Assembly: GCA_963821925.1 (NCBI GenBank)
Contig: CAWGFO010000010.1
Coordinates: 74,065-138,064 of the forward strand
Length of the DNA stretch: 64,000 nt
Source of the DNA: an uncultured Actinomycetes bacterium
GTDB lineage: Bacteria > Actinomycetota > UBA4738 > HRBIN12
Direction of reading: 5' to 3'
Part shown: positions 15,819-45,330 of the stretch, piece after piece
Layout: each line of letters starts with the position of its first letter
Position numbering within the stretch: position 1 is the first letter of the stretch
Notes under the pieces: model-generated
Databases searched by the model: none
Told to the model about the DNA's origin: nothing
What the model saw: the letters and a program-made list of their open reading frames with translations, nothing else
Position numbers and translations under genes: made by a program

Positions 15819-16927
15819 CCGGCGACGTGGCGATGCCCGCGGCGTCGTCATCCGGCGCCGGCGATCCCGTGCCGGGCGCGCACCAGTGGCGCGGGCTGAT
15901 CGAGGAGTACCGCGGCCGGCTCCCCGTCACCGATGCGACCCCCGTGATCACGCTCCGCGAGGGTGGCACCCCGCTCGTGCGCTCCGACGTCCTCTCAGCC
16001 GAGACCGGCTGCGACGTCTGGCTGAAGTTCGAGGGGGCGAACCCCACCGGCTCCTTCAAGGACCGCGGGATGACCCTCGCGATCAGCAAGGCGGTCGAGG
16101 CCGGCGCCAAGGCCGTGGTCTGCGCCTCGACCGGGAACACCTCGGCGAGCGCGGCGGCCTACGCCGCGAAGGCGGGGCTCACCTGCGCGGTGCTCGTCCC
16201 CAAGGGCAAGATCGCGCTCGGCAAGATGGCGCAGACGTTGATCCACGGCGCGCGCGTGCTGGAGGTCGACGGGAACTTCGACGCCTCGCTCGAGCTCGCG
16301 AAGGATCTGGCCGAGCGCTACCCGGTCACGCTCGTGAACTCGGTGAACCCGTTCCGTCTCCAGGGCCAGAAGACCGCGGCGTTCGAGATCTGCGACGCGC
16401 TCGATCGCGCGCCCGACCTGCACTGCGTGCCGGTGGGCAACGCCGGCAACATCTCGAGCCACTGGATCGGCTATTCGGAGTACCTCGCCGACGGGATGAT
16501 CGCCGAGCCCCCGCAGCTCTTCGGGTTCCAGGCCCAGGGAGCGGCCCCGATCGTGCTCGGCGAGCCCGTGAAGGACCCCCAGACGATCGCCACGGCGATC
16601 CGCATCGGGAACCCAGCCTCCTGGGACAAGGCCGTGAACGCCGCGAGGGAGTCCGAAGGCGCGATCGAGGCGGTGACCGACCGCGAGATCCTCGCTGCCT
16701 ATCGCCGGATCGCGCGCGAAGGGATGTTCGCGGAGCCGGCGAGCGCGGCCAGCGTCGCCGGCCTGCTGCACCTGCACGCCGAGGGGAAGCTGCCCGCGGG
16801 GGCGACCGTCGTGTGCATCCTCACCGGGCACGGCCTCAAGGACCCCGAGTGGGCGATCGCGGGGGCGGCCACCCCGGTGACGGTCTCGGTCGACGCGGCG
16901 GCCGTCGCGGCCGAGCTGGGGCTCTAG
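15815..16927 (+). CDS. thrC: Threonine synthase
   Basis: PLP-lysine motif [17 protein letters not shown] at 15815 overlaps the hom stop (an ATG at 15833 is an alternative start). Confidence 0.9.
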
Positions 16928-16932
16928 CGGGC

Positions 16933-17781
16933 GTGCGCCTCACCGTCCGCGTCCCCGCGACCTCGGCGAACCTCGGCCCGGGCTTCGACTGCTTCGGGCT
17001 CGCGCTCGATCTGTGCAACGAGGTGACGGTCGACACCGACGCGGCGCCCGGCGTGGCGTGGGAAGGCGAGGGCGCGTCGGAGCTGCCGACCGACGGTTCC
17101 GACCTCGTGAGTCACGTGATGGCGTCCGTCGCCCAGGTGACGGGCGGGACCCTGCCGCCGATGCGGCTCGACGGGCTGAACCGGATCCCGCTCGAGCGAG
17201 GCCTCGGGTCCTCCTCGGCCGCCGCCGTGGCCGGCGCGGCGATCGCTCTGCGGATCCTCGGCGAGGCGGCGACGCCCGACGCCGTGTTCGGTCACGCGGC
17301 GAGGATCGAGGGGCATCCCGACAACGCCGGCCCCGCGGTGTTCGGCGGCTTCACGATCGCGCTGCCGGACGGGACGGTCCACCGGTTCGACCCGCACCCC
17401 GACCTCCATCCTGTCGCGCTCGTGCCGGGCGACCGGTTGCCCACCGCCGAGGCGCGCCGGGCGCTCCCCGAGGACGTACCGCGCGAGGACGCGGTGTTCA
17501 ACGTGGCGCACGCGGCACTCACCGTCGAGGCACTGACCCGCGACCCGTCGCTCCTCGGCGAGGCGCTCCAGGACCGGCTCCATCAGGACGCCCGGCTCGC
17601 GCTCGTTCCGGCGGTGCTCGAGGTCTTCCGCTCCCTCCGGGGAGCCGGGGTCCCCGTGTGCGTGTCCGGGGCGGGTCCGACGCTCCTCGCGTTCCCGCGC
17701 GAGCCGCTCGCGGTCCCCGAGGGCTGGCGCGTGATCGAGCCGGGGATCAGGTCCCGGGGGTTCGAGCTGGCCGAGGAATGA
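16933..17781 (+). CDS. thrB: Homoserine kinase
   Basis: GHMP-kinase motif PLERGLGSSSAA and an N-terminal ANLGPGFD motif. Follows thrC directly. Confidence 0.85.
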   Translation: MRLTVRVPATSANLGPGFDCFGLALDLCNEVTVDTDAAPGVAWEGEGASELPTDGSDLVSHVMASVAQVTGGTLPPMRLDGLNRIPLERGLGSSSAAAVAGAAIALRILGEAATPDAVFGHAARIEGHPDNAGPAVFGGFTIALPDGTVHRFDPHPDLHPVALVPGDRLPTAEARRALPEDVPREDAVFNVAHAALTVEALTRDPSLLGEALQDRLHQDARLALVPAVLEVFRSLRGAGVPVCVSGAGPTLLAFPREPLAVPEGWRVIEPGIRSRGFELAEE

Positions 17782-17787
17782 ATCCCG

Positions 17788-18966
17788 TCAAGCGGGGGTG
17801 CACACGCCCGGGCTCACGGCCTCGTCTCGGGCGATCGACCGCGTGACGAGCTGGGAGAACTCGCTCGACACGATCGCGTAGCCCACGTGATCCTCGACCA
17901 CCGAGTTCGCGAACACGACCCCGGCGACCTTCCCGTTCGGCAGCACGAACGGCCCCCCGCTATTGCCCGGCGCCACGTCGGCCTGCAGCTCGTACAGACG
18001 CCGCGTGACCTCGCCGCTCCCGTAGATGTCGTGGCCGACGGGCACGATCACCTGGCGCACGGCTGCGGCCCCGGTCGTGAGCGAGCCCCCGCCGGGGTAC
18101 CCGAGCACCGCTCCGCCGTCCCCGCGGGCGAGATCGCCACCCAGGAGGGCGAGCGGCGGCGCCGTCAGGGTGGGGACGTGCAACACGGCGATGTCCAGAT
18201 CCGGATCGAACCCCACGACGGTCGCCGGGTGGTCGTGGCCGTCGAGGCGGACCCACAGCTCGGTCGTGCCGGCCACGACGTGCGCGTTCGTCACGACGAA
18301 CCCGGGCTCGACCACGAACCCGCTGCCTTGGTTCAAGAACCCGTGGAAGCAGCCGTCCCCGAGGACCTCTGCCGTGCTCGGCGCTGCGTGCCGGAAGGCG
18401 GCCGTGGCATCGGCCCCCGACGGCGGCTCGACCGGGTCGGCCGGGACCGGCGGGAGCCCGATGAACACGTCGGGGAACCCGAGGAGCGCGAGGACCCTTT
18501 GCAGCTCCCCGATCATCGAGGGCGGCTGCGGCATCACGGCGTCGAGGCCCCGCACCACTCTCGAGTCGCGGATCCCGCGGGCGATCTGCGGGAACGGCCC
18601 GTTGGCCAGGTTCAACGCGAGGAACCAGGTCGTGAGCAGGAGCGCGACCACGGAGACGACCGCACCCCCGTAGGCGTCGGCGCTCTGCATCTTCGAGCCG
18701 TGCGTCCTCGTGCGGACACGGCTGCCGACCACCCATCCTGCGAGGTTGCCGACCGCGCCGCCGATCAGCACGACGCCGAGCGCGATCGCGATCTGGGTCA
18801 GCGGATCACCCCCGAATCGGGCAAGCCGGGGGGCGAGCATGATGCCGATCACGATGCCGAGGGCCAGCCCCGACAGCCCGATCACCTGCAGCACGGCGCC
18901 GCGCCGGTAGCCGCCGATCACGGACAGCACCAGCAGCACGAGGAAGATCAGGTCGAGCCAGGTCAT
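17788..18966 (-). CDS. MarP-family membrane serine protease (CvpA-like membrane domain plus trypsin-like protease; Rv3671c-like)
   Basis: Four N-terminal TM helices, then a chymotrypsin-fold domain with VTNAHVV (His), D and GNSGGP (Ser) catalytic motifs. Confidence 0.75.
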   Translation of the reverse strand: MTWLDLIFLVLLVLSVIGGYRRGAVLQVIGLSGLALGIVIGIMLAPRLARFGGDPLTQIAIALGVVLIGGAVGNLAGWVVGSRVRTRTHGSKMQSADAYGGAVVSVVALLLTTWFLALNLANGPFPQIARGIRDSRVVRGLDAVMPQPPSMIGELQRVLALLGFPDVFIGLPPVPADPVEPPSGADATAAFRHAAPSTAEVLGDGCFHGFLNQGSGFVVEPGFVVTNAHVVAGTTELWVRLDGHDHPATVVGFDPDLDIAVLHVPTLTAPPLALLGGDLARGDGGAVLGYPGGGSLTTGAAAVRQVIVPVGHDIYGSGEVTRRLYELQADVAPGNSGGPFVLPNGKVAGVVFANSVVEDHVGYAIVSSEFSQLVTRSIARDEAVSPGVCTPA

Positions 18967-19013: not shown

Positions 19014-19805
19014 GTGAAGGAGTTGGCGGGCAGGGGCGCGCTCGTGACCGGCGGGACCACCGGCCTCGGCCGCGCGATCGCCGAGGTGTTCGTGCGGGAG
19101 GGCGCCGCGGTCGTGATCACCGGGCGCGACGAGGGGCTCGGGCGGGAGGCCGAGGCCGTGCTGCGCGGGGCCGGCGAAGCGTGGTTCGTGCGCGCCGATG
19201 CCGGCGACCCCGCGCAGATCGAGGCGTCGGTGGACCAGGCGGTCGGGCTCCTGGGCGGGCTCGACGTGCTCGTGAACAACGCGGGCCTGGGCGTGGCCGC
19301 CTCGCCGCTCGACACCCCGCTCGCGGACTACGACCGGGTGATGGACGTGAACGTGCGTGGGTGCTTCCTCTACGCGCAGCGGTGCTTCCCTCACCTCGAG
19401 GCCCGTGGCGGCTCGATGATCCACATCGGCTCCGACGCAGGGGTGCTGGGAGAGGTCGACATCGGCGTCTACTCGGTCTCGAAGGCCGCGGTGCACATGC
19501 TGTCGAACGTGCTCGCCGTCGAGGGCGGCCGGCGCGGGGTGCGATCGAACGTGATCGCGCCCGGCGATACGGAGCCGGGCATGCGCCACATGGGCCCACC
19601 CGGCGACCAGGATCGGCCCGAGGACGACCCGTCGACCTGGCCGCTCCCGCCGATCGGGCGCGTGGGCCGCGCGGCCGACGTCGCCGAGGCCGCCGTCTAC
19701 CTCGCCTCCGAACGGGCCTCGTTCGTGAACGGCGTGACGCTGCTGCTCGACGGGGGCATGCGCGCGGGGTTCAACACCGCTCGGTTCCTGCCGATGACCC
19801 CATGA
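19014..19805 (+). CDS. Short-chain dehydrogenase/reductase (SDR)
   Basis: TGGTTGLG cofactor motif, NNAG, and a YSVSKAA catalytic YxxxK. Confidence 0.8.
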   Translation: MKELAGRGALVTGGTTGLGRAIAEVFVREGAAVVITGRDEGLGREAEAVLRGAGEAWFVRADAGDPAQIEASVDQAVGLLGGLDVLVNNAGLGVAASPLDTPLADYDRVMDVNVRGCFLYAQRCFPHLEARGGSMIHIGSDAGVLGEVDIGVYSVSKAAVHMLSNVLAVEGGRRGVRSNVIAPGDTEPGMRHMGPPGDQDRPEDDPSTWPLPPIGRVGRAADVAEAAVYLASERASFVNGVTLLLDGGMRAGFNTARFLPMTP

Positions 19806-19848: not shown

Positions 19849-20637
19849 GTGGTCACGATCGCCCACATCTCCGATCCGCACGTCGGTTCGCCGTTCTTCG
19901 TGCCGAACCTGATGAACCGCGTGATCAAGGAACTCAACGAACTGTCGCCCGATGCCGTCGTCTGCACCGGCGATCTCACGACCGAGGGCTACCGCCAGGA
20001 GTACAAGAACTGGCTCGCCTACGCCGAGCGGATCGAGGCGCCGATCCACACCGTGCCGGGCAACCACGACTCGCGCAACGTCGGGTACCTCCACTTCGAG
20101 GATCTGATCGGACCGCGGATGTGGACGGCCGAGGTCGAGGACGTCCGGATCGTGGGGCTGGACTCGAGCGAGCCCGACCTGAACGAGGGCAAGGTCGGGC
20201 GCATGCACTACGAATGGATCAGCCGCCAGTTCCAGGCGCCCGCCGCGCTGAAGGTGCTGGCCCTGCATCACCACCTGCTGCCGATCCCGGGCACCGGTCG
20301 TGAGCGGAGCACGGTGATGGATGCGGGCGACCTCCTCGAGGTGCTGATCCACGCGGGCGTCGACGTCGTGCTCTCGGGGCACAAGCACGTCCCCTACGTC
20401 TGGCGCCTCGAGAAGATGTTCGTCGCGAACGCCGGGACCGTGTCGTCCCTCCGCGTGCGCGGGTACACGAAGCCCTGCTACAACGTGCTCGAGTTCGAAC
20501 GGGGCGAGGTCAAGATCTTCCGGAAGTTCCCGTTCGGCGACAGCACCGTGATGGCGCACTTCGCGCTCTCGGGCGAGGAGTTCTACCGGGCGCACGAGCT
20601 GCCCGTCCAGGAGCGCACCGTCCACGTCGGCGACTAA
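19849..20637 (+). CDS. Metallophosphoesterase (calcineurin-like)
   Basis: Begins with GTG. Motifs SDPHVG, GDLT, GNHD, LHHH and GHKH are the canonical MPE metal-ligand blocks. Confidence 0.75.
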   Translation: MVTIAHISDPHVGSPFFVPNLMNRVIKELNELSPDAVVCTGDLTTEGYRQEYKNWLAYAERIEAPIHTVPGNHDSRNVGYLHFEDLIGPRMWTAEVEDVRIVGLDSSEPDLNEGKVGRMHYEWISRQFQAPAALKVLALHHHLLPIPGTGRERSTVMDAGDLLEVLIHAGVDVVLSGHKHVPYVWRLEKMFVANAGTVSSLRVRGYTKPCYNVLEFERGEVKIFRKFPFGDSTVMAHFALSGEEFYRAHELPVQERTVHVGD

Positions 20638-20688
20638 CGCCGGCCCCACCACCCGCACGATCGTCCCGACCGACCCCCCGATGGAAAG

Positions 20689-22035
20689 GTGATCCCCACC
20701 CCGATGCGCACCCTCGTCCTCGTCGACGGCGAGCATTACCCGCCGGTCACCCGGTGGGGCATCGAGACGGCCATCGCCCGCGGCCACGACGTGGTGGGCG
20801 CGCTGATGGTCGGCGGGATCGAGAAGATCGATCCGGGGTCGCTGCCCGACCTCGGCGTCCCGACGACCGCGGCCGGCGACGACCGGATGGCCGCGCTCGG
20901 CGCCGCGCTCGACGCGCTCGAGCCCGAGGTCGTGCTCGACCTGTCCGACGAACCCATCCTCGGCTACCGGGAGCGGATGGAGCTCGCGGCGGTCGCGCTC
21001 GCCCGGGGGGTCGTCTACCAGGGCGCCGACTTCCGGCTGGACCCGCCGGCCGGTGGCCCGCCGATCGACGCTCCCACGCTCGCCGTGATCGGCACGGGCA
21101 AGCGGACCGGGAAGACCGCGATCAGCGGCGAGGTCGCCCGGCTGGCCGCGCGCATGGGTCTCGACCCGGTCGTGGTGGCGATGGGGCGCGGCGGACCACC
21201 CGAGCCACAGGTCGCCGAGGCCGGGAGCGTTGACCTCGAGCGCCTGCTCGAGCTCGTCCGGTCGGGCCAGCACGCCGCGTCGGACTACCTGGAGGACGCG
21301 CTCACGACCGGCGTGACGACGATCGGCGCCCGCCGCGCGGGCGGGGGGCTCGCGGGGGCGCCGTACGCGACGAACGTCCGCGAGGCGGCCGAGCTCGCCG
21401 CCGCCCGCCGCCCGGGCGTCGTGATCCTCGAGGGCAGCGGGGCGGCGGTACCGCCCGTCCCGTGGGACGCCGGCGTCCTCGTGGTGCCCGCCTCGGCCCC
21501 GCCCGAGTACCTGGGGGGCTATCTCGGTCCCTATCGTCTCTTGCGGTCGGACCTCGTGGTTGTTACCATGGCGTCCAGCCCGTTCGCTGGGCCCGAGAAC
21601 CTCTCCGCACTCCGTTCCCACGTCGGCCGCTTCCTCGATGATGCCCGGTGCGTGGTGACCGACTTCATCCCGGTACCGCTGTCCGACGTGCGGGATGCGA
21701 GGGTGTTCTTCGCCACGACGGCGCCGGGGGCGGTCGCCGCTCGACAGGTCGACCACCTGGTGAGCGTCCACCGATGCGACGTCGTGGGATGGAGCGCGCG
21801 GCTGGCCGATCGGGCCGGCCTCGCGGAGGATCTCGATGCGGCCCAGGGATACGACGTCCTCCTCACGGAGCTGAAGGCCGCCGCCGTCGACGTGGCGTGC
21901 GAGCGGGCGATGGCCCGGGGGGCGGAGGTCGTGTTCGTGGACAACCGCGCCACGGTGGTGGAGGGATCGACCGATCTCGACACGGCGTTGGGCGAGGTGC
22001 TCGACCGAGCATCCGAGCGAGGGACTCACCGGTGA
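20689..22035 (+). CDS. Cyclic 2,3-diphosphoglycerate synthetase-like P-loop protein (archaeal cDPGS family)
   Basis: 448 aa, N-terminal LVDGEHYPPV, Walker-A GTGKRTGKT. The size and architecture match Methanothermus cDPGS. Its stop overlaps the GTG of the 2PGK-like gene. Confidence 0.5.
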   Translation: MIPTPMRTLVLVDGEHYPPVTRWGIETAIARGHDVVGALMVGGIEKIDPGSLPDLGVPTTAAGDDRMAALGAALDALEPEVVLDLSDEPILGYRERMELAAVALARGVVYQGADFRLDPPAGGPPIDAPTLAVIGTGKRTGKTAISGEVARLAARMGLDPVVVAMGRGGPPEPQVAEAGSVDLERLLELVRSGQHAASDYLEDALTTGVTTIGARRAGGGLAGAPYATNVREAAELAAARRPGVVILEGSGAAVPPVPWDAGVLVVPASAPPEYLGGYLGPYRLLRSDLVVVTMASSPFAGPENLSALRSHVGRFLDDARCVVTDFIPVPLSDVRDARVFFATTAPGAVAARQVDHLVSVHRCDVVGWSARLADRAGLAEDLDAAQGYDVLLTELKAAAVDVACERAMARGAEVVFVDNRATVVEGSTDLDTALGEVLDRASERGTHR

Positions 22036-23000
22036 ATCGATCCGATACGAAGACCCATATCGTGATCTCCGATCGCGAGCCCGGCCTGCCGTTCTCCAAG
22101 GGCCTGCTCGCGTCCCAGGTCATGGTCACGGGGCTGTCGCCGTTCCGCGCGTACCAGGTCGCCGAGGCGGTCGAGGAGCGCCTGCGCGCCGACGGGAGCG
22201 TCTCGCTCACGAGCGAGGAGCTCTCCGATGTGGCCCTGGCCGTCCTGGGCGAGATCGCGGGCGAGCGCTACGCGAAGAACTTCGTGCGGTGGCGCGAGGT
22301 CGAGCGTCTCGACGTCCCGCTGGTGATCTTGATCGGCGGCGCCACGGGCGTGGGCAAATCCACGATCGCGACGCAGCTCGCCGCTCGCCTCGGCATCGTC
22401 CGGGTGGTGGCCACCGACGCGATCCGCGAGGTGATGAGGTCGATGCTCTCGCCGAAGCTGATGCCCACGCTCCACACGTCGTCGTTCCACGCCGACGAGG
22501 CACTCCTGGAGCCTCCGTCGAAGGCGGTCGACGCCCTGATCGTGGGCTTCCGGGAGCAGACGGCGGCCGTCTCGGTCGGCATCGATGCACTGATCGAGCG
22601 CGCGGCGACCGAGGGCACGAGCATCGTGATCGAGGGAGCGCACGTGGTGCCCGGGTTCTTCGACGTGCAGACGCACGCCGAGCGGATCCTGTCCGTCTCG
22701 TTCCTGATCGGCGTCGACGACGAGGAGCGGCACCTCACGCACTTCGCCTCCCGCGAGGGCGCGGTGGCCGCCCGGCCGGCCGAGCGGTACGCGAACGGGT
22801 TCGACAACATCCGCAAGCTCCAGCGCTACGTGAAGGCGCAGGCGCTCGCCCACGGGGTCCCGATGATCCCCAACTACAGCTTCGACCAGTCGATCGCTGC
22901 GGTGACCGACCTGGTCATGGAACGCGCCACCGAGCGCGCGGCCGAACTCCGCGCGGCGGGGGCCACGAACGAGCACCGAGCAGAAGGGATACCGACGTGA
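22032..23000 (+). CDS. 2-phosphoglycerate kinase-like (ATP-cone plus P-loop kinase)
   Basis: N-terminal ATP-cone ([20 protein letters not shown]...VEERL), then Walker-[11 protein letters not shown] and a kinase core. This is the archaeal 2PGK architecture. Confidence 0.6.
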
Positions 23001-23658
23001 AGCTCTTCCTCGACACGGCAAGCATCGAGGAGATCCGCGAGATCAACCGATGGGGCGTCCTCGGCGGCGTGACGACGAACCCGTCCCTCGTGGCCAAGGA
23101 GGCCCAGGACCCCGACCGGGTCTGGAAGGAGATCCTCGAGGAGGTCCCGGGCGATATCTCGCTCGAGACCACCGAGCCCGAGGCCGACGCGATGTACGAC
23201 GAGGGCGTCGACCTCTCGCGGAAGGCCCCGAACGCCGTCGTGAAGGTGCCGATGACGCCCGACGGACTCGCCGCGGGCCGCGCCTCACCGAGGACGGGAT
23301 CCGTATCAACGTCACGCTCGTCTTCTCGCCGGCCCAGGCGATCCTGGCCGCCGAGATCGGCGCCTACATCGTGTCGCCGTTCCTCGGTAGGCTGGACGAC
23401 GTCGGCAGCGACGGCATGGGCATGCTCCGCACGATCTGCGAGATCTACGCGGTGCAGGGCTATCGCACCAACGTGCTGGCGGCCTCGCTTCGGCACCCGA
23501 TGCACGTGGTCGACGCCGCGCTCGCGGGCGCCGATATCGCCACGATGCCGTACGACGTGTTCATCAAGCTCGTGAAGCATCCGTTGACCGACTCCGGCCT
23601 GGACAAGTTCATGGCCGACTGGAACACGCTCCAGAACGAACTGAAGGGAGAGGCCTAG
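22997..23658 (+). CDS. tal: Short transaldolase / fructose-6-phosphate aldolase family; one apparent 1-nt deletion near 23285
   Basis: [32 protein letters not shown], the Schiff-base lysine in VVKVPMT, and a C-terminal half (INVTLVFS...) in the +1 frame. The frame is restored by ccc in place of cc at about 23285. Confidence 0.7.
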
Positions 23659-23662
23659 CCTC

Positions 23663-25432
23663 ATGGAGACCACGACCGACCGCAGCGCCCTCGAGGGCAA
23701 GCTGATCCCCGAGCTGCAGCGGATCGCCCAGGAGATGGGCATCGAAGGCACGCAGAAGCTCCGCAAGGCCGGCCTGATCGACGCGATCGTCGAGAAGGGT
23801 GGCAACGGGGAGGCCAACGCATCGACCGGGTCCGCCGCGCCACGTGGGCGCCGGGGCGCCAACGGCGAGTCCGCCGCGTCCGCCGAAGGCGCCGAGGCGC
23901 CGCCGGAGACGTCGACCGAGGAACGCGCCGATGAGCGCGGCACGTCCGAGCGCGCCGACGACACGTCCGAGGCCGAGGAGCGCGGCGCCGAGGACGGCGA
24001 CGTCGACGGGAACCGAGAGGCCCCGCGTGCTCCGCGCGGCGACCGCCAGCGCGACGACCGTGGCGATCGCGGCCGCGACCGGAACCAGGATCGTGGTCCG
24101 AGCGACCGCGGTGACCGGAACCAGGACCGGAACCAGCCCCGCAACCAGGGCGGACAGCCCCGGAACCAGGACCGTGCCCAGGGCGGACAGGATCAGGACC
24201 AGGGTGGTCAGCGCGACCGCGACGGTCGCCGCCAGCGTCCCTCCCGCGAGGAGCGCCGGCGTCAGCGCGAGGAACGGCGCCTCCGCGAGGAGGCCGATCG
24301 CGCCGAGGAGGTCGCGAACGCTCCCACGCAGAGCGGGATCCTCGACCTCCTGCCCGACGGCTACGGGTTCTTGCGGACCTCCGGCTACATGCCGGGCTCC
24401 GAGGACGTCTACGTCTCGGTCTCGCAGGTCCGCAAGGCGTCCCTCCGCAAGGGAGACGTGATCGGCGGCAAGGTCCGGCGTCCGCGCGACAACGAGAAGT
24501 ACCTCGCACTCCTCGAGGTCGAGACCGTCAACGGCATGGATCCCGAGACGGCGCGCGACCGCTCGAACTTCGACAAGCTGACCCCGCTCTTCCCCGACGA
24601 GCGTTTCCGGCTCGAGTCGGGCCCGCTCGCCGTGGCCGAGCGCATCATCGACATGATCGCGCCGATCGGCAAGGGCCAGCGCGGCATGCTCGTGGCGCCG
24701 CCCAAGGCGGGCAAGACGACGATCCTCAAGCAGGTCGCGAACGGGATCATCGCCTCGAACCCGGAGGTGCACCTGATCGTGCTGCTCGTCGACGAGCGGC
24801 CCGAGGAGGTCACCGACTGGCAGCGCACGGTGACCGCCGCCGAGGTCGTCTACTCCACGTTCGACAAGCCCACCGAACAGCACATCCAGGTCACCGAGCT
24901 GGTGCTCGAGCGAGCGAAGCGGCTCGCGGAGTCCAAGCAGGACGTCGTGATCATCCTCGACTCGCTCACACGGCTGGCGCGCGCCTACAACCTCGCGATG
25001 CCCGCGAGCGGCAAGATCCTGTCGGGCGGCATCGACGCGTCGGCGCTCTACCCGCCTCGGCGGTTCTTCGGCGCGGCGCGCAACATCGAGGAGGGCGGCT
25101 CGCTCTCGATCATCGCCTCGGCGCTCGTCGAGACCGGGTCGCGCATGGACGAGGGGATCTTCGAGGAGTTCAAGGCCACGGGCAACATGGAGCTCCGCCT
25201 CGACCGGCAGCTCGCGGAGAAGCGCCTGTTCCCCGCGATCAACGTCGACGCGTCGGGCACCCGCAAGGAGGAGCTGCTGCTCCCGCCCGAGGAGCTCGCC
25301 CTCGTGATCAAGCTGCGCCGGGTCCTGCACGCGTTGGAGCCGGCCGCCGCGCTCGAGCTCCTCACCGACAAGATCCGCGCCACGAAGTCGAACGAGCAGT
25401 TCCTGAAGGAGATCGCGAAGAGCGGGAACTGA
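23663..25432 (+). CDS. rho: Transcription termination factor Rho with an RD/RG/NQ-rich N-terminal insertion
   Basis: 589 aa with the Walker-A GKGQRGMLVAPPKAGKT and Q/R loops. About 110 aa of low-complexity D/R/G/N/Q insert lies between the N-terminal domain and the CSD, as in other actinobacterial Rho proteins. Confidence 0.95.
   Translation: METTTDRSALEGKLIPELQRIAQEMGIEGTQKLRKAGLIDAIVEKGGNGEANASTGSAAPRGRRGANGESAASAEGAEAPPETSTEERADERGTSERADDTSEAEERGAEDGDVDGNREAPRAPRGDRQRDDRGDRGRDRNQDRGPSDRGDRNQDRNQPRNQGGQPRNQDRAQGGQDQDQGGQRDRDGRRQRPSREERRRQREERRLREEADRAEEVANAPTQSGILDLLPDGYGFLRTSGYMPGSEDVYVSVSQVRKASLRKGDVIGGKVRRPRDNEKYLALLEVETVNGMDPETARDRSNFDKLTPLFPDERFRLESGPLAVAERIIDMIAPIGKGQRGMLVAPPKAGKTTILKQVANGIIASNPEVHLIVLLVDERPEEVTDWQRTVTAAEVVYSTFDKPTEQHIQVTELVLERAKRLAESKQDVVIILDSLTRLARAYNLAMPASGKILSGGIDASALYPPRRFFGAARNIEEGGSLSIIASALVETGSRMDEGIFEEFKATGNMELRLDRQLAEKRLFPAINVDASGTRKEELLLPPEELALVIKLRRVLHALEPAAALELLTDKIRATKSNEQFLKEIAKSGN
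23980..24300. repeat. Imperfect short tandem repeats (gaccggaaccagga-like units) encoding the Rho low-complexity insert
   Basis: Repeated gaccggaaccagg / cagggcggacag units are visible between about 24040 and 24250. Confidence 0.5.
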
Positions 25433-25516: not shown

Positions 25517-25744
25517 ATGAAGCAAGGCATCCACCCCGACTACCAGATCGCGAACGTCCACTGCTCGTGCGGGAACACGTTCCAGACCCGCTCGACCGTC
25601 AGCGAGATCCGCGCCGAGATCTGCTCGAACTGCCACCCCTTCTACACGGGCAAGCAGAAGCTGATGGACACCGGCGGCCGGGTCGAGCGCTTCCAGAAGC
25701 GCTACGCGAAGACCCAGGCGGCGCAGCAGGCCGCGAAGCAGTAG
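25517..25744 (+). CDS. rpmE: 50S ribosomal protein L31 (type A, zinc-binding)
   Basis: MKQGIHPDY...CSCG...[13 protein letters not shown]. Confidence 0.95.
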
Positions 25745-34007: not shown

Positions 34008-35141
34008 GTGGCCGTGCCGGAGATCGACGTACGCCTCGAACGGGTCTCCAAGATGTTCGGGGACGTGGCAGCGGTGGACGACCTGTCCCTCGACATCGAA
34101 GAGGGCGAGTTCTTCAGCTTGCTGGGCCCGTCGGGCTGTGGGAAGACGACGACGCTCCGCATGATCGGCGGGTTCGAGGATCCGACGTACGGCACCGTCT
34201 ACCTGGGCGGACGCGACGTCACCGACCTGCCTCCGTACAAGCGCGACGTCAACACGGTCTTCCAGTCGTACGCGCTGTTCCCGCACCTCGACGTGAAGGA
34301 GAACGTGGCGTTCGGGCTGCGGCGCAAGAAGGTCGACAAGGCCGAGATCGAGACGAGGGTCAAGGACGCCATGACGCTCGTCGACCTGATCGGGTTCGAG
34401 ACCCGGAAGCCGCCGCAGATGTCGGGTGGACAGCAGCAGCGCGTCGCGCTCGCACGGGCGCTCGTGAACCACCCCAAGGTGCTCCTGCTCGACGAGCCGC
34501 TCGGCGCCCTCGACCTGAAGCTCCGCAAGCAGATGCAGCTCGAGCTCAAGCGGATCCAGCAGGAGGTCGGCATCACGTTCATCTACGTGACGCACGACCA
34601 GGAAGAGGCCATGACGATGTCGAACCGCTTCGCCGTCATGCGCCTCGGCAAGATCGAGCAGCTCGGGGATCCCGAGATGGTCTATGAGAACCCCGCCACG
34701 GAGTTCGTCGCCGGGTTCCTGGGCGCCTCGAACATGCTCGAGGGCGACCTCGAGGCAGGGTCGAACGGCGTCGCCACCGTGTCGCTGCGCGGCGGCGGTG
34801 TGGTGCGGCTCCCCACGAGCCGCGTGCCTTCCGACGCGCACGGCACCGTGAAGGTCGGCGTGCGCCCGGAGAAGCTCACGATCACGAGAGGGGAGGACGC
34901 CACCGTCCCCGAGGGGGTCAACCACGTATCCGGCCGCGTCACGATGACCACCTACATCGGCGTGAGCCACCAGTACAAGGTCGAGGCGGTGGGCGGCACG
35001 ATCATGACCGCCTACGTGCAGAACCTGGGCCACGAGGACGCTCCCCGACAGGGCGAGGCCGTCACGGTCTCCTGGAGGCCCGAGCACACGTTCGCGGTCG
35101 TCCCCCAGGAGGGCTTGATCATGGAGGAGGACGAAGCATGA
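34008..35141 (+). CDS. potA: Spermidine/putrescine-type ABC transporter ATPase (PotA-like)
   Basis: Walker-A GPSGCGKTT, signature LSGGQQQRVALARAL, Walker-B LLLDEPLGALD, and a C-terminal TOBE domain. Confidence 0.85.
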   Translation: MAVPEIDVRLERVSKMFGDVAAVDDLSLDIEEGEFFSLLGPSGCGKTTTLRMIGGFEDPTYGTVYLGGRDVTDLPPYKRDVNTVFQSYALFPHLDVKENVAFGLRRKKVDKAEIETRVKDAMTLVDLIGFETRKPPQMSGGQQQRVALARALVNHPKVLLLDEPLGALDLKLRKQMQLELKRIQQEVGITFIYVTHDQEEAMTMSNRFAVMRLGKIEQLGDPEMVYENPATEFVAGFLGASNMLEGDLEAGSNGVATVSLRGGGVVRLPTSRVPSDAHGTVKVGVRPEKLTITRGEDATVPEGVNHVSGRVTMTTYIGVSHQYKVEAVGGTIMTAYVQNLGHEDAPRQGEAVTVSWRPEHTFAVVPQEGLIMEEDEA

Positions 35142-36430
35142 CGGAGGACCGCAGGACGCCCGACCCGGCGTTCGCCGCGTCACTGATGCGCGGCATGACC
35201 CAGCGCCGGATCTCCCGTCGCGATCTGATCAAGTACGGCGGGGCCACGGTCGGCACCCTGAGCCTCGCCTCGATCCTCGCGGCATGCGGTGGCGACACGG
35301 CTCCCGGGAGCGGCGGCCAGCCGAGCGGTGCGACGGTCGACTTCGGCGCCCAGGCCGGCGACACCGTCAACTTCGCCAACTGGCCGCTCTACATCGACAA
35401 GGGGAAGCTGCCCGACGGCAGCAAGGGGTACCCGTCGTTGTACAAGTTCCAGCAGGAGACCGGTATCACGGTCAACTACAACGACGAGATCCAGGGCAAC
35501 GCCGACTTCTTCGGCGAGATCCTGCCGCAGCTCCAGGCCGGGCAGGACACCGGGCGCGACATCATCGTGATCACGAACGGCCGGGAGCTCAACGCCTTGA
35601 TCGTCAACGGATGGCTCACGGAGCTGGACGCCTCGATGCGGCCGAACTTCGACGCGAACGCGGCCACGTGGGCGAAGGACCCCGACTTCGATCCCGGGAA
35701 CAAGTTCTCGATGGCCTGGCAGTCCGGGCTCACCGGGCTGGGCTGGAACAACGACAAGGTGAGTCGGCCGCTCACCAAGATGGACGACCTGATGAACCCC
35801 GATATCGTCGGGACGAATTCGGTCGGCATGCTGAAGGCCGACATGCCCGACCTCGTGATGATCAACCTCGGCATCGTCCCGGCCGAGTCCACGCCGGAGG
35901 ACTGGAAGGCCGCGGCGGAGTGGATCCAGAAGCTCAAGGATTCCGGCACGGTGCGGACGTTCTACGACCAGGGCTACATCGACGACTTCACGGCGGGAAA
36001 CCTCTCCGCGAGCATGGTCTGGTCCGGCGACGTCCTCTACTACAAGATCTGGGAGAACGCCCCCTATGATTTCGCCGTGCCCGAGGGCGGCGCCCTCCTG
36101 TGGATCGACAACATGCTGATCCCGGCCAACTCCGCCAATCCCCAGGGCGCCTACCAGCTGATGGACTTCGTCTACAAGCCCGAGATCGCCCAGCTGATCA
36201 CCGAGTGGGTGCTCTACATGTCGCCCGTGCCGGCGGTGCAGGACCTGATCGCCCAGCACGCCAGCGAGGAGACCGGCGCGTATGCCGCCGACCTCGAGGC
36301 CACGGCGACGAGCCCGTACCTGTGGCCCGATGAGGCGCTGCTCGCGCAGACGCCGTTCGGCCGCAACCTCACGACCGATGCCGAGCGCGAGGAGTGGGAC
36401 AGCATCTTCATCCCGCTGACGGAGTCGTAA
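35138..36430 (+). CDS. Polyamine-type ABC substrate-binding protein (PotD/PotF-like) with Tat/lipoprotein signal
   Basis: RRISRRDLIKYGGATVGTLSLASILAACGG signal, then a periplasmic-binding-protein fold. ATGA overlap with potA. Confidence 0.8.
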   Translation: MTEDRRTPDPAFAASLMRGMTQRRISRRDLIKYGGATVGTLSLASILAACGGDTAPGSGGQPSGATVDFGAQAGDTVNFANWPLYIDKGKLPDGSKGYPSLYKFQQETGITVNYNDEIQGNADFFGEILPQLQAGQDTGRDIIVITNGRELNALIVNGWLTELDASMRPNFDANAATWAKDPDFDPGNKFSMAWQSGLTGLGWNNDKVSRPLTKMDDLMNPDIVGTNSVGMLKADMPDLVMINLGIVPAESTPEDWKAAAEWIQKLKDSGTVRTFYDQGYIDDFTAGNLSASMVWSGDVLYYKIWENAPYDFAVPEGGALLWIDNMLIPANSANPQGAYQLMDFVYKPEIAQLITEWVLYMSPVPAVQDLIAQHASEETGAYAADLEATATSPYLWPDEALLAQTPFGRNLTTDAEREEWDSIFIPLTES

Positions 36431-36432
36431 GG

Positions 36433-37392
36433 GTGCCCCAAGATCAGGCCAAGGATCTTGCGCTCCTGACGGCCACCGTCGCCGGTCAGACCGGCGACGG
36501 GCCACCCGGGCGCGCGGACCAGTTCTTGGCCAAGCGCCGACAGCGGGTGGCCTACGGTTTGTTGGCGCCGGGGGCGGTCTACCTCATGTTCGCGTTCATC
36601 GTTCCGCTGACCCTGGTCGTGTACACCTCGCTCGAGAGCGGAGGCCTGCTGTCGGGTGGCTACTCGTTCTCCTGGGCGTTCGACAACTACGTCACGGCGT
36701 TGACCGACTTCAAGACCTTCTACGCGCGGTCGTTGGTCTACTCGGGCCTGGCGACGGTGTTCTGCATCCTGCTCGCGTACCCGATGGCGTACTGGATCGC
36801 GTTCTACGCCGGGAAGTGGAAGTCGACGTTGTTCTTCCTGATCCTGGTGCCGTTCTTCGTCTCGTTCGTGATCCGCACGGTGCAGTGGAAGTTCCTGCTC
36901 GCCGACGACGGGGTGATCTTCGGTCCCCTGAAGACGCTCGGTCTCCTGCCGGAGACGTTCCACGTGCTCGCCACGCCGGTCGCGGTCGTGGCCGGCATCA
37001 CGTACAACTTCCTACCGTTCACCGCGCTGCCCCTCTACGTCGCGCTGGATCGGATCGACAAGCGACTGGTCGAGGCGGCCAAGGACCTGTACGCGACGAA
37101 GTTCGAGGCGTTCCGCAAGGTCGTGCTGCCGTTGTCGTTCCCCGGGCTGTTCGCGGCCGTGATCCTCACCTTCGTGCCGGCCACCGGTGACTACGTGAAC
37201 TCCAGCGTGCTGGGGTCGAACAAGACCACGATGATCGGGCAGATCATCCAGTCGAAATTCCTCGTGGAGGCCGACTATCCGCAGGCCGCCGCGCTCTCCG
37301 TGATCCTGATGGTGGGCATGCTGGTGATCGCCCTGATCTACGCACGGGTGCTGGGCACCGAGGACGCGGCCTTGGCCGCGGCGGCGGCATGA
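36433..37392 (+). CDS. potB: ABC transporter permease (PotB-like)
   Basis: Six TM helices and an EAAKDLYAT EAA loop. Confidence 0.8.
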   Translation: MPQDQAKDLALLTATVAGQTGDGPPGRADQFLAKRRQRVAYGLLAPGAVYLMFAFIVPLTLVVYTSLESGGLLSGGYSFSWAFDNYVTALTDFKTFYARSLVYSGLATVFCILLAYPMAYWIAFYAGKWKSTLFFLILVPFFVSFVIRTVQWKFLLADDGVIFGPLKTLGLLPETFHVLATPVAVVAGITYNFLPFTALPLYVALDRIDKRLVEAAKDLYATKFEAFRKVVLPLSFPGLFAAVILTFVPATGDYVNSSVLGSNKTTMIGQIIQSKFLVEADYPQAAALSVILMVGMLVIALIYARVLGTEDAALAAAAA

Positions 37393-38282
37393 GCGCGGCC
37401 ACGATCGATCGATCGGGCGTCGACCGCGGTCCGCTCCGCAAGCAGCGCCGGCGATGGACGTTCTACATCCTGCCGGTGTTCACGATCGCGATGATCGTCT
37501 ACCTGGCGGCGCCGATCTTCATCATGATCCTCTTCTCGTTCAACAAGCTCGTAGGTGAACGGCAGGTCGCCACCTTCACGTGCTGCACGCTCGACTGGTG
37601 GCGTGAGATGTTCGGCGTCCAGGGGCTGAACAAGGCGATCGCGACCTCGATCAAGGTCGCGATCCCCGCGTCGATCATCGCGGCCGCGATCGGGGCCCTG
37701 ATCGGGCTGGTGCTGGGCCGCTACCGGTTCGGCGGCCGGGGTCTCACGAACTTCGTGATCTTCCTCGCGATCGCGATCCCCGAGATCGTGCTCGCGTCGG
37801 CGCTGCTCTCGATGTTCGTGCAGGCGACGACGCCGCTCGGATACGGCACGATCCTCTTCAGCCACATCGGGTTCTCGATCGCGTTCGTCGCCATCACGGT
37901 GCGCGCCCGCGTGCAGGGGCTCGACCGGTCGCTGGAGAACGCGGCGCAGGACCTGTTCGCGACGCCGTTCCAGGCGTTCGTGCGTGTCACGCTCCCGCTG
38001 ATCATGCCGGGCATCGTGGCAGGGTTCCTGCTTGCGTTCGTGCTCTCCCTCGACGACTTCGTGATCACGAACTTCGTGGGCGGCTCGGTGAACACGTTCC
38101 CGGTGTGGGTGTACGGCGCGTCGCGCATCGGGGTCCCACCGCAGGTGAACGTCTGGGGCACGATCCTGTTCCTGGCGGGCCTCCTGACGGCCGGGCTGAA
38201 CCTCGCCAGCAGCTTCCGCTCGAGCCGCAAGGCGTCGGTGGTCGTCTCGACCGCGCCGGTGGTCCAGGCGTCGAGCAAGTGA
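37389..38282 (+). CDS. potC: ABC transporter permease (PotC-like)
   Basis: Six TM helices and an ENAAQDLFAT EAA loop. ATGA overlap with potB. Confidence 0.8.
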   Translation: MSAATIDRSGVDRGPLRKQRRRWTFYILPVFTIAMIVYLAAPIFIMILFSFNKLVGERQVATFTCCTLDWWREMFGVQGLNKAIATSIKVAIPASIIAAAIGALIGLVLGRYRFGGRGLTNFVIFLAIAIPEIVLASALLSMFVQATTPLGYGTILFSHIGFSIAFVAITVRARVQGLDRSLENAAQDLFATPFQAFVRVTLPLIMPGIVAGFLLAFVLSLDDFVITNFVGGSVNTFPVWVYGASRIGVPPQVNVWGTILFLAGLLTAGLNLASSFRSSRKASVVVSTAPVVQASSK

Positions 38283-38651: not shown

Positions 38652-40181
<1,530 letters not shown>

Positions 40182-40192
40182 GGAGGCCCGGC

Positions 40193-40732
40193 ATGCTGCA
40201 CGTAGTGCTGCTGGCCGCGGAGGAGAAGAACCCGATCCTCCCGGACATCGCCGAGCTGATCTACGGCACGCTCGCGTTCCTGATCGTGTTCGGGCTGCTG
40301 GCGAAGTTCGCCTTCCCGGCCTTGAACACGATGCTCGCCGAGCGCACCGCCAAGATCCAGGGCGAGATGGAGAAGGCCGAGGCCACCCGACAGGAGGCCG
40401 ACGCCCTGCTCGCCGAGTACCGCCAGAACCTGGCCGGCGCTCGGGACGAGTCGAACCGGATCATCGAGGAGTCCCGCAAGACCGCGGAGCAGCTCCGGCG
40501 CGACGTCCAGGCCAAGGCCGAGGAGGAGTCGCAGGCCACGGTGGCCCGCGCCCAGGAGGAGATCCGCGCCGAGCGCGACCGGGTCTTCGCCGAGCTCCGC
40601 GGCCAGGTCGGCGACATCGCCGTCGAGCTCGCCGGCCGTGTCGTGGGTGAGTCCCTCGACAAGTCGGCGCACGAGCGCCTGATCGACGAGTACATCGACC
40701 AGGTCGCTTCGGGCGGGAACGGGCAGAACTGA
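40193..40732 (+). CDS. atpF: F0F1 ATP synthase subunit b
   Basis: Single N-terminal TM helix and a long charged coiled coil. Confidence 0.9.
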   Translation: MLHVVLLAAEEKNPILPDIAELIYGTLAFLIVFGLLAKFAFPALNTMLAERTAKIQGEMEKAEATRQEADALLAEYRQNLAGARDESNRIIEESRKTAEQLRRDVQAKAEEESQATVARAQEEIRAERDRVFAELRGQVGDIAVELAGRVVGESLDKSAHERLIDEYIDQVASGGNGQN

Positions 40733-40733
40733 C

Positions 40734-41276
40734 ATGGCGTTCACGGACGACGCGATCCGCGGCTATGCCGAGGCGTTCGCGGCGGTGGCCGAGGCGGAGG
40801 GCGTGCTCGACAAGGTCGAGGACGAGCTCTTCGCGTTCGGCAAGGCGCTCGAGCAGCGGTCCGAGCTGCGCGAGGCGCTGACCGATGCCGCGATCCCGGC
40901 CGAGAACCGCAAGGCCGTCGTGCGCGAGATCCTGAACGACCGGGCCCACGACGTCACCGTGAACCTGATCGGGTTCGCGGTCGAGTCCGGGCACGCCCGG
41001 GACCTGGGCAAGATCGTCGCCACGGTGAGCGCGATCGCGGCCGAGCGCCGCGAGCATCAGCTCGCCGAGGTCCGCAGCGCCGTGCCGCTCGACGAGTCCC
41101 AGCGGGCCCGGCTCGCTGCGGCCCTGTCGACGGCGACGGGCCGGTCGATCGAGGTCAAGGTCGTCGTCGACCCCACGGTCGTGGGCGGCGTGGTGGCCCG
41201 GGTGGGCGACGAGGTGTTCGACGGCTCGATCGCGAGCCGTCTGGACGACGCGAAGCAGCAACTAGGGAGCGTGTGA
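40734..41276 (+). CDS. atpH: F0F1 ATP synthase subunit delta (not fused to b)
   Basis: OSCP/delta family, 180 aa, positioned between atpF and atpA. Confidence 0.85.
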
Positions 41277-41280
41277 CGAG

Positions 41281-43005: not shown

Positions 43006-43008
43006 CCC

Positions 43009-43899: not shown

Positions 43900-45330
<1,431 letters not shown>

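Follow-up and report, generated by a model that had tools for sequence, protein, structure and literature searches.

A predicted operon for cyclic 2,3-diphosphoglycerate metabolism in Actinomycetota

The window, i.e., the whole stretch of 64,000 nucleotides that was analyzed, contains a block of genes that is fairly likely to be a vertically inherited Actinomycetota operon for the making and breaking of cyclic 2,3-diphosphoglycerate (cDPG), with a core of a metallophosphoesterase (MPE), a cDPG synthetase (cDPGS) and a 2-phosphoglycerate kinase (2PGK). This proposal is based on homology, ligand residues, gene order, gene overlaps and distribution, from which we infer the catalytic activities, the presence of cDPG in the cell and its physiological role. 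A preceding sequence-only reading had stated that the pathway is not characterized in any bacterium. This holds for the searchable literature, in which no paper on a native bacterial cDPG pathway was found and in which the paper on a cultured carrier makes no mention of diphosphoglycerate, but not for the gene names, as thousands of such bacterial proteins are already annotated as cDPG synthetase by NCBI and JGI.

Organization of the block and its neighbors

Four co-directional genes on the plus strand were confirmed at positions 19849-23658 (Table 1). The sequence-only reading had placed just these four in the thrB-rho junction; the interval holds six genes, the additional ones encoding a MarP-family protease and an SDR oxidoreductase. 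The protease scores above the cut-off of its model (338.5 against 250 bits, E=5e-101), and its gene, a variable neighbor between thrB and the block, is missing from many relatives. The SDR gene, found in only 17 of 80 related loci, is likewise a variable neighbor outside the core. The distance from thrB to the MPE gene in relatives ranges from 7 to 5261 nt.

Table 1. Genes in the thrB-rho region of the window.
Feature	Position	Strand	Best supporting match or remark
thrB	16930..17781		
MarP-family membrane serine protease (CvpA + trypsin-like domains)	17788..18966	-	NCBIfam NF033740
SDR oxidoreductase	19014..19805	+	Pfam adh_short_C2, E=3e-52; 43 nt upstream of MPE
MPE (calcineurin-like metallophosphoesterase, 262 aa)	19849..20637	+	Pfam PF00149 Metallophos, E=6.2e-21
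cDPGS orthologue (cyclic 2,3-diphosphoglycerate synthetase)	20689..22035	+	PDB 8ORK/8ORU, E=6e-95
2PGK homologue (322 aa)	22032..23000	+	NCBIfam NF003259, E=1.5e-87
tal, subfamily-5 (fsa/talC-type) transaldolase, interrupted	22997..23658	+	PF00923 (halves); TIGR00875 once repaired
rho (589 aa)	23663..25432	+	TIGR00767, E=2.1e-182

The MPE gene adjoins the cDPGS gene, as proposed earlier, but does not overlap it in the window, where the gap amounts to 51 nt (to the GTG at 20689) or 66 nt (to the ATG at 20704). The stop/start overlaps described for the following genes are real: GTGA motifs join cDPGS to 2PGK (22032-22035) and 2PGK to tal (22997-23000), and both are kept in relatives, the former overlap (-4 nt) in 52 of 76 loci and the latter (-4 nt) in 66 of 74, with four more at -17 nt. 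With a GC3 of 0.91-0.94, the block genes are real coding sequence. The start of rho lies 4 nt past the tal stop, this gap being ≤5 nt in about 50 of 62 relatives, and no terminator-like site was found between tal and rho in the window. Therefore, rho, whose product carries a long R/D/N/Q/G-rich insertion in its N-terminus, is probably co-transcribed with the block.

Relationship to archaeal enzymes

The longest cDPGS reading frame, starting from the GTG at 20689, encodes 448 aa. Since M6 is invariant in homologues, the ATG at 20704 is likely the true start, which would result in a protein of 443 aa. A PDB search with the 448-aa protein retrieved solely cDPG synthetases (including 9SXB at E=4e-90), in accordance with the expectation that cDPGS would be its best homologue. 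Identity to the cDPGS of Methanothermus fervidus (PDB 8ORK, 8ORU; De Rose et al. 2023, PMC10690619) is 41% over 435 aa, i.e., full-length, and both proteins belong to the same length class and have the Walker A motif GTGKRxGKT in common. Both motifs quoted in the sequence-only reading are present; LVDGEHYP is encoded by nt 20719-20742 and GTGKRTGKT by nt 21091-21117. Ten of eleven mapped ligand residues are kept (E45, K46, K145, R146, K149, T150, D208, T353, E404, K406), so that the window protein shares the residues contacting 2,3-DPG, Mg and phosphates. In the M. fervidus enzyme, E45, K145 and R146 bind 2,3-DPG, T150 and D208 bind Mg, K149 and K406 shield charge, and E45/K46 are contributed by the partner subunit of the dimer (PMC10690619); E45, K145, R146, T150, D208, K149 and K406 are also kept in 16/16 aligned relatives. 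The exception is E305, which contacts the adenosine/ribose part of ADP in M. fervidus (PMC10690619) and is replaced by Ser in the window protein, this position being Ser or otherwise variable. Unlike the M. fervidus enzyme, the window cDPGS is bacterial and encoded at 72% GC. The PF27272 CpgS_N domain is found in all close homologues, for which JGI/NCBI use the name cDPG synthetase. As judged from these alignments, the 448-aa protein and the solved M. fervidus enzyme are orthologous over their full length.

For the kinase, the best families are both NCBIfam 2-phosphoglycerate kinase models, NF003259 (293.8 bits over profile positions 4-297 of 306) and NF008994 (E=4.9e-86), which agrees with the expected best homologue. 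By profile comparison, the protein is a full-length 2PGK homologue that has the P-loop kinase core and a weakly ATP-cone-like N-terminal region in common with the archaeal family (NF003259/PRK04220; M. fervidus 2PGK). Its score lies below the equivalog cut-off of 343 bits, as do those of the orthologues scored from other Actinomycetota classes (n=3, 299-320 bits). The kinase family read earlier from the sequence is thereby corroborated, and a P-loop (GGATGVGKS) is visible, whereas the ATP-cone is only a weak match under its cut-off (E=0.005). No solved 2PGK structure was found for comparison.

The assignment of the fourth gene to the short FSA/TalC-type transaldolases is correct as to family, but the reading frame is not intact in the window. 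Compared with four relatives, 1 nt is deleted between 23274 and 23275, and the resulting halves match PF00923 in different frames (E=7e-17 and 1.7e-31). Once repaired, the 220-aa protein exceeds the TIGR00875 cut-off (257.6 against 245.95 bits) and is most similar to the subfamily-5 transaldolases of Thermotoga maritima (1VPX, E=1.2e-69) and Bacillus subtilis (3R8R, E=5e-67), with Escherichia coli FSA at 1e-31; in contrast to the former two, the window gene is frameshifted and translationally coupled to 2PGK. With Glu at the position of 'ETT' and Phe within 'SPF', the repaired protein carries what we take to be a transaldolase rather than an FSA signature.

Conservation and origin of the operon

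Wherever flanks were available, each of the 80 closest genome loci showed the order MPE-cDPGS-2PGK-tal-rho; these genomes are all Actinomycetota MAGs, many of them from soil. The block also occurs in Thermoleophilia, Geothermincolia and Coriobacteriia, the last with a cultured carrier, strain Es71-Z0120. In an independent metagenome scan centered on the MPE, 64/69 loci had cDPGS as the next gene downstream. In the lineage scanned, the flanks are unrelated to thrB/rho: upstream lie an M23 peptidase, a Kelch protein and a PRTase, and downstream glpX and a gene for an Fe-S assembly protein. Because of these unrelated flanks and because glpX replaces tal, MPE-cDPGS-2PGK is, on the basis of gene order, the conserved core of the operon; tal is a variable central-carbon neighbor, which speaks against its earlier inclusion as a pathway member.

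The sequence-only reading had interpreted the block as an inserted archaeal-type cassette. A recent horizontal acquisition into the thrB-rho junction might seem plausible given that the review and structure papers on the pathway describe archaeal enzymes only; to our knowledge, the pathway has been biochemically shown in archaea only. In addition, thrB presumably adjoins rho in classical Actinobacteria such as Mycobacterium. Against this, the GC content of the block (0.69-0.755) equals that of its flanks (0.68-0.75), and its GC3 resembles that of neighboring genes, which argues against a recent archaeal insertion. Position and order are shared by the 80 closest genomes and by other Actinomycetota classes, across which cDPGS has diverged to 42-49% identity, and the nearest archaeal enzyme is about 41% identical. 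The archaeal arrangement also differs: in the Methanobacteriales loci examined (Methanothermobacter and M. fervidus), cpgS was found neither next to 2PGK nor with an MPE nearby but is followed by a RimB-like gene, whereas the window cDPGS adjoins both. Such a recent event is contradicted by these data and extremely unlikely, an ancient inter-domain transfer may have occurred, and by all appearances the operon is old and vertically inherited in Actinomycetota. It is also very unlikely that the cDPGS-like protein uses another substrate and does not make cDPG, as would be the case for a protein like the arginine synthetase ArcE (Thermococcus kodakarensis TK2200). ArcE is a recognized distant homologue of cDPGS, both belonging to one broad P-loop superfamily, and is found widely among bacteria, some Actinomycetota among them (PMC11032458), and a 50%-identity library contains a long tail of weaker cDPGS relatives (1028 matches at E<=1e-3, only 253 at E<=1e-30). 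Yet the similarity of ArcE to cDPGS is 'low' (PMC11032458), whereas the window protein is 41% identical over its full length to a bona fide cDPGS and retains every residue for which a contact with 2,3-DPG or Mg has been described. Moreover, ArcE genes are located near arcB/arcC (PMC11032458), of which no homologue was seen among the annotated flanking genes of the window cDPGS; its translationally coupled partner is instead a 2PGK homologue that would provide the substrate.

The metallophosphoesterase and the possible role of cDPG

The closest solved relatives of the MPE are the class III enzymes Rv0805 of Mycobacterium tuberculosis (E=6.6e-12) and GpdQ of Enterobacter (E=7e-9; PDB 2HY1, 3IB7, 2ZO9), both distant with about 160-200 residues aligned. 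All dinuclear metal-binding motifs of this calcineurin-like fold family (DxH, GD, GNHD, HHH, GHxH) are invariant across classes. Seven Arg and the blocks DSSEPD and PxPGTGRER do not vary either; these are subfamily-specific and, together with the fixed partnership with cDPGS and 2PGK, distinguish the MPE from Rv0805 and GpdQ. Across Actinomycetota classes the MPE is more conserved (51-58% identity) than cDPGS. The earlier suggestion of a cDPG-turnover enzyme gains comparative support from the partnership with cDPGS and 2PGK, and the MPE is a candidate cDPG or 2,3-BPG hydrolase. That it is unrelated to cDPG, e.g., an Rv0805-like cyclic-nucleotide phosphodiesterase kept by inherited gene order, seems somewhat unlikely. 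Its best solved matches, Rv0805/Icc and GpdQ, are cyclic-nucleotide and glycerophosphodiester phosphodiesterases and not pyrophosphatases, the archaeal cpgS loci examined lack an MPE nearby, and its adjacency within the window's clade is weak evidence because the entire thrC-to-rho region is syntenic. The MPE is also dispensable in one lineage (L084, L089), since cDPGS-2PGK-tal-rho is kept there without it. On the other hand, the junction between thrB and MPE is highly variable in length and in the presence of the MarP or SDR gene, whereas that between MPE and cDPGS is essentially never broken, the pair persists where all flanks differ, and both genes overlap by 4 nt in two classes (L085, L088). 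On the equivalog models for CpdA (51.7 bits, cut-off 225), YfcE and SpdA, the MPE stays far under the cut-offs.

In the proposed cDPG pathway, 2PGK would phosphorylate glycolytic 2-phosphoglycerate to 2,3-bisphosphoglycerate (2,3-BPG), and cDPGS would close its two phosphates in an ATP-driven reaction to the cyclic pyrophosphate cDPG, as in M. fervidus. Less certainly, the MPE might convert cDPG to 2,3-BPG, or 2,3-BPG to monophosphoglycerate. The operon would then encode synthesis and breakdown of a compound that stores phosphate, carbon and energy and doubles as anionic solute. An analogous combination is the ppk-ppx operon of E. coli, encoding polyphosphate kinase and exopolyphosphatase, in which an ATP-dependent maker and a hydrolase of a phosphoanhydride reserve also share one operon; the enzymes are unrelated, however, the product there is a polymer and not a small cyclic compound, and for the MPE a hydrolase function is predicted. 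Precedent for a reserve comes from the reversible M. fervidus cDPGS and from a cDPG hydrolase activity in Methanothermobacter thermautotrophicus, which is membrane-bound (PMC1224877), whereas no obvious membrane segment was seen in the window MPE on reading its sequence by eye. In this lineage, the translational coupling of the block to the housekeeping gene tal and its run-on into rho suggest constitutive expression.

Alternatively, the pathway could work without accumulation of cDPG as a solute, keeping 2,3-BPG or cDPG as a small pool with a regulatory or cofactor function. The carriers are apparently mostly non-thermophilic soil and sediment organisms, cDPGS homologues are also found in the mesophilic genera Methanobacterium and Methanobrevibacter, and the genes to which the block is linked (tal, glpX, rho) are housekeeping and not stress genes. 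Nevertheless, a cofactor that takes two ATP for each molecule and a dedicated module of three genes would be costly, and we regard a small pool as unlikely. The idea that the organism may be thermophilic is not borne out either, given the cDPGS homologues of these two genera and the closest relatives of the window, which are Danish soil/sediment and soil-catalogue MAGs (PMC12313526, PMC10640626). The proposed operon more likely provides soil bacteria with a reserve or an osmolyte than with heat protection. Since clear orthologues of both archaeal enzymes occur in what appears to be an old, vertically inherited operon with a conserved MPE partner, the 'methanogen-only' pathway to the solute cDPG probably occurs widely in bacteria.

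Identity of the 448-residue protein and layout of its locus

When searched against the PDB, the 448-aa protein retrieved only cyclic 2,3-diphosphoglycerate (cDPG) synthetases (cDPGS), among them the M. fervidus enzyme (8ORK/8ORU, E=6e-95) and 9SXB (E=4e-90), in agreement with the sequence-only reading, which had recognized the architecture of this enzyme. The phmmer alignment with the M. fervidus protein covers residues 7-441 of the query and 6-452 of the chain, and the identity is 41% over 435 aligned amino acids. Local Pfam and NCBIfam scans, whose copies do not contain a CpgS model, yielded no match for the 448-aa protein, and precomputed annotation places PF27272 (CpgS_N) on all 120 closest homologs among the matches listed, one of which is 97% identical.

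The ligand residues named for the M. fervidus enzyme in the structure paper (PMC10690619) served as the basis for a residue mapping. Conserved in the window protein are the 2,3-DPG contacts E45 (from the partner subunit), K145, and R146, the Mg ligands T150 and D208, the charge-shielding residues K149 and K406, and the ADP contacts T353 and E404. Of the remaining ADP contacts, E305 is replaced by a serine and is variable among relatives, and the position mapped to the published P335 holds no proline in this numbering. Apart from these two, all mapped ligands as well as K46 are kept in 16 of 16 aligned relatives, and the same applies to the Walker A P-loop, which is also present in the window protein. 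Since Met6 is invariant in homologs and the alignments with the archaeal enzyme begin there, the ATG at 20704 is the likely start codon. Judged by its sequence, the window protein is an ortholog of the M. fervidus enzyme with intact active-site residues.

A distant paralogous family of cDPGS, ArcE (arginine synthetase, T. kodakarensis TK2200), is widespread among bacteria (PMC11032458). An assignment of the 448-aa protein as an ArcE-type arginine synthetase was rejected on account of its high identity to true cDPGS, the retained 2,3-DPG ligands, the coupled gene for a 2-phosphoglycerate kinase (2PGK), and the lack of arc genes among the annotated flanking genes.

Gene layout from hom to prmC (window positions)
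Feature	Position	Strand	Remarks
hom	upstream of thrC, ends not delimited	+	
thrC	about 15830-16927	+	
thrB	16930-17781	+	
MarP-family membrane serine protease	17788-18966	-	CvpA membrane domain and trypsin-like domain, 338.5 bits (cut-off 250)
Short-chain oxidoreductase (SDR)	19014-19805	+	
Calcineurin-like metallophosphoesterase (MPE)	19849-20637	+	
cDPGS homolog	20689 or 20704-22035	+	
2PGK homolog	22032-23000	+	
fsa/talC-type transaldolase (tal)	22997-23658	+	
rho	23663-25432	+	589 aa
rpmE	25517-25744	+	
DUF1385, DivIVA-like gene, prfA, prmC	3' of rpmE		

The cassette had been described as four genes inserted between thrB and rho; the interval actually holds six, the protease and SDR genes being the additional ones. 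Both GTGA stop/start overlaps, at the cDPGS-2PGK and the 2PGK-tal junction, are present in the sequence. MPE does not overlap the cDPGS gene, from which it is separated by 51 nt (GTG 20689) or 66 nt (ATG 20704). The block has a GC content of 0.69-0.755, its surroundings one of 0.68-0.75, and the GC3 of 0.91-0.94 in the four genes is the same as in their neighbors. The composition of the block thus bears no mark of a foreign origin, and a recent archaeal island was rejected.

Scanning 17.5-26 kb for promoters and terminators revealed no site above the shuffled expectation, and a search for PHO boxes gave no site near the block and a count corresponding to chance. The Rfam scan of the whole window identified one tRNA-Arg only. 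With its start only 4 nt past tal, rho has no leader of its own. The Rho protein of the window carries an R/D/N/Q/G-rich insertion of ~170 residues at about residues 50-220; Rho proteins of the Thermoleophilia, Geothermincolia, and Coriobacteriia loci (418-450 aa) are without it. Elsewhere in the window (34008-38282 and 39100-45714), genes for an ABC sugar-type transporter (ATPase, solute-binding protein, two permeases) lie between a GT4 glycosyltransferase gene and a run of eight ORFs, which by ORF sizes and position looks like an F1Fo ATP synthase operon. The first-position GC of the permease and binding-protein genes (0.58-0.61) is below that of their neighbors.

Distribution and gene order in bacteria and archaea

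Among the first 8,000 candidates listed, more than 7,700 clusters at 90% identity matched the window cDPGS with E<=1e-5, and many such clusters from Actinomycetota metagenome-assembled genomes (MAGs) are already named "cyclic 2,3-diphosphoglycerate synthetase" by JGI/NCBI. A one-genome-per-species collection contains at least 508 stretches that code for a relative. The best 80 of these at least 508 loci all belong to uncultured Actinomycetota MAGs, many of which originate from a Danish soil/sediment survey (PMC12313526) and the SMAG soil catalog (PMC10640626). The order thrC-thrB-(MarP)-(SDR)-MPE-cDPGS-2PGK-tal-rho was found in the best 80 loci wherever flanks were available. The spacing between cDPGS and 2PGK is -4 nt in 52/76 loci, that between 2PGK and tal is -4 nt in 66/74 loci (and -17 nt in four more), and tal and rho are separated by at most 5 nt in about 50 of 62 loci. 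MPE and cDPGS are usually 14-75 nt apart. The distance between thrB and MPE varies widely (7-5261 nt), since MarP, SDR, or other genes are present in some loci and absent from others. A MarP-family protease was found in only some relatives. Both SDR and MarP were rejected as members of the module, as they are variable among relatives.

A library clustered at 50% identity contained 253 clusters at E<=1e-30. A profile built from distant high-GC clusters led to proteins from Coriobacteriia, Thermoleophilia, Geothermincolia, and unclassified Actinomycetota, and all seven contigs inspected from these distant clusters carry cDPGS-2PGK-tal-rho. MPE lies directly upstream of cDPGS in five of the seven (Thermoleophilia, Geothermincolia, two Coriobacteriia, and one unclassified Actinomycetota), with a 4-nt overlap of the two genes in two contigs. 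The only two bacterial loci without MPE are L084 and L089. The place of MPE upstream of cDPGS is taken there by two lineage-specific small genes (141-146 and 224-231 aa) without a Pfam match (L084:4748-5923; L089:3675-4912, minus strand). In a further locus of this set, the product of L087:3345-4532 belongs to a family that includes a proposed alternative homoserine kinase. One of the Coriobacteriia carriers is a cultured strain, Es71-Z0120 (Anaerosomatales; L086), a thermophile with a growth range of 25-77 °C, whose published description makes no mention of diphosphoglycerate (PMC9686372).

In every bacterial locus examined that reaches beyond the cDPGS gene, 2PGK adjoins it. In contrast, cpgS of Methanothermobacter and M. 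fervidus has neither 2PGK nor MPE nearby and is followed by a RimB-like gene. This gene (PF05618) lies directly after cpgS in both (L081:9405-9935 and L083:5914-6492, respectively) and overlaps it in M. fervidus, which points to the RimB-like protein as a conserved archaeal partner of cpgS. In Pyrococcus yayanosii, the cDPGS and 2PGK genes are adjacent, as in bacteria (PMC4890121). A neighbor-joining tree of ~70 family representatives displayed long star-like branches that do not cleanly separate bacterial from archaeal groups, and therefore allows no conclusion as to whether ancient transfer or common ancestry explains the origin of the bacterial genes.

Kinase, transaldolase, and phosphoesterase

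With regard to the predicted 2PGK-like kinase, the assignment to the family held, with a match to NCBIfam NF003259 over the whole profile length (E=1.5e-87), at scores below the equivalog cut-offs (NF003259, 293.8 vs 343 bits; NF008994, 289.2 vs 603 bits). Orthologs from three other Actinomycetota classes likewise stay below the cut-off of 343, scoring 299-320 bits, and we read these proteins as a probable bacterial branch outside the reach of an archaeal-seeded cut-off. Domain searches yielded AAA_33 (28.8 bits, cut-off 27) and a weak match of the N-terminus to the ATP-cone (E=0.005; 17.7 bits, cut-off 25.8).

The tal gene lacks one base between 23274 and 23275 in comparison with four relatives and is thereby divided into two frames, both halves being otherwise well conserved. 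In 80 of 80 relatives, the halves share one frame. A Nanopore-based soil/sediment survey (PMC12313526) is the source of many of the closest relatives, and several of their loci contain split genes, which makes a sequencing or assembly error plausible; the frameshift may thus reflect such an error rather than a pseudogene. With one base restored, the 220-aa product exceeds the TIGR00875 cut-off (257.6 vs 245.95 bits), and its best solved matches are the T. maritima (1VPX, E=1.2e-69) and B. subtilis (3R8R, E=5e-67) proteins, with E. coli FSA at 1e-31. As true transaldolases match best, an FSA aldolase was rejected.

MPE scores well above the PF00149 cut-off (76.1 vs 21.5 bits), and its dinuclear metal-site motifs D9-x-H11, G41-D42, G71-N72-H73-D74, H140-142, and G177-H178-x-H180 are invariant among nine orthologs. 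The same holds for the subfamily-specific blocks DSSEPD and PxPGTGRER and for seven arginines, a feature that could fit a polyanionic substrate but is suggestive only. Among proteins of solved structure, Rv0805 and GpdQ come closest (E=1e-11 to 1e-8). MPE stays far under all NCBIfam equivalog cut-offs, as illustrated by CpdA (NF008359, 51.7 vs 225 bits), SpdA (38.1 vs 400 bits), and YfcE (42.7 vs 56.25 bits). Between classes, MPE is more conserved (51-58% identity) than cDPGS (42-49%) and 2PGK (41-51%). A single-sequence AlphaFold model of MPE (pLDDT 42) was unusable for a fold search.

Independently of cDPGS, metagenome contigs were searched starting from MPE, which yielded 69 loci with room downstream. 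In 64 of these cDPGS follows immediately 3' of MPE, and in three more it is found within 2.4 kb. These loci represent another, probably soil-dwelling lineage, whose MPE is 51-62% identical to that of the window. Instead of tal, 2PGK is followed by glpX (class II fructose-1,6-bisphosphatase; PF03320, E=2.5e-103) in 27 of 32 loci of this lineage (among L091-L170). In L163, the one such locus that was annotated, glpX overlaps 2PGK by 4 nt (L163:6950-7957), and the flanks are unrelated to thrB/rho, with genes for an M23 peptidase, a Kelch-repeat protein, and a phosphoribosyltransferase upstream and for an Fe-S assembly protein downstream. Given that the flanks differ and glpX replaces tal, the unit travelling together is MPE-cDPGS-2PGK. 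The fourth gene encodes a central-carbon enzyme and varies between tal and glpX. In B. subtilis, tal and glpX lie close upstream of rho, and the vicinity of such genes to rho may therefore be an old arrangement rather than a link to the pathway.

Putative function and significance of the module

What the sequences show is that cDPGS is an ortholog whose active site is intact, that 2PGK is a homolog, that the genes are translationally coupled, and that three of them form a conserved core. In the proposed sequence of reactions, 2PGK would convert 2-phosphoglycerate to 2,3-bisphosphoglycerate (2,3-BPG), which cDPGS would cyclize to cDPG with consumption of another ATP, by analogy with M. fervidus. 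MPE would then hydrolyze cDPG or 2,3-BPG and so feed carbon and phosphate back into glycolysis. A cDPG hydrolase activity is described from M. thermautotrophicus in a review as membrane-bound and inhibited by K+ and Pi, and the same review relates the reversibility of the M. fervidus synthetase to proposals of cDPG as an energy and phosphate store (PMC1224877). No gene assigned to this hydrolase was found among the papers searched. To our knowledge, no sequence-defined family is known for the activity either. An operon that encodes both the maker and the breaker would be comparable to ppk-ppx. We tentatively consider, as a possibility we hold to be somewhat doubtful, that MPE is the long-missing cDPG-opening enzyme, that MPE-cDPGS-2PGK forms a make-and-break module for a phosphoanhydride reserve, and that cDPG commonly serves Actinomycetota of temperate soils as an anionic solute and as a store of phosphate and energy, with a tie to gluconeogenic and pentose-phosphate genes (tal or glpX).

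Thermoprotection is unlikely to be the main role of cDPG in these organisms. The majority of carriers seem to live in temperate soil or in sediment, and cDPGS is also found in Methanobacterium and Methanobrevibacter, which are mesophilic genera. The optimal growth temperature calculated from IVYWREL content (about 46 °C from 44 proteins) was judged unreliable and not used because of the 72% GC and the small sample.

The enzyme families are known, and bacterial genes are already named in public annotation. In line with the earlier remark that the pathway has not been characterized in any bacterium, full-text literature searches turned up no publication that deals with a cDPG pathway native to bacteria, and the 2023 structure paper describes cDPG as exclusive to hyperthermophilic archaeal methanogens (PMC10690619). 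With respect to the literature, we believe four points to be new: how widely the genes are spread among bacteria, how deeply they are conserved in Actinomycetota, their constant partnership with MPE, and the alternation of tal and glpX. Relatives of cDPGS occur in thousands of metagenome protein clusters, and many of the closest ones come from temperate soil or sediment. The fixed MPE partner offers a specific candidate for the cDPG hydrolase that can be put to the test, and the cultured carrier Es71-Z0120 makes direct tests feasible. Provided that the enzymes do what their sequences indicate, cDPG would be a metabolite widespread among bacteria and not a heat-specific archaeal curiosity, with consequences for phosphate storage in soil bacteria and for the way they cope with drying and salt.
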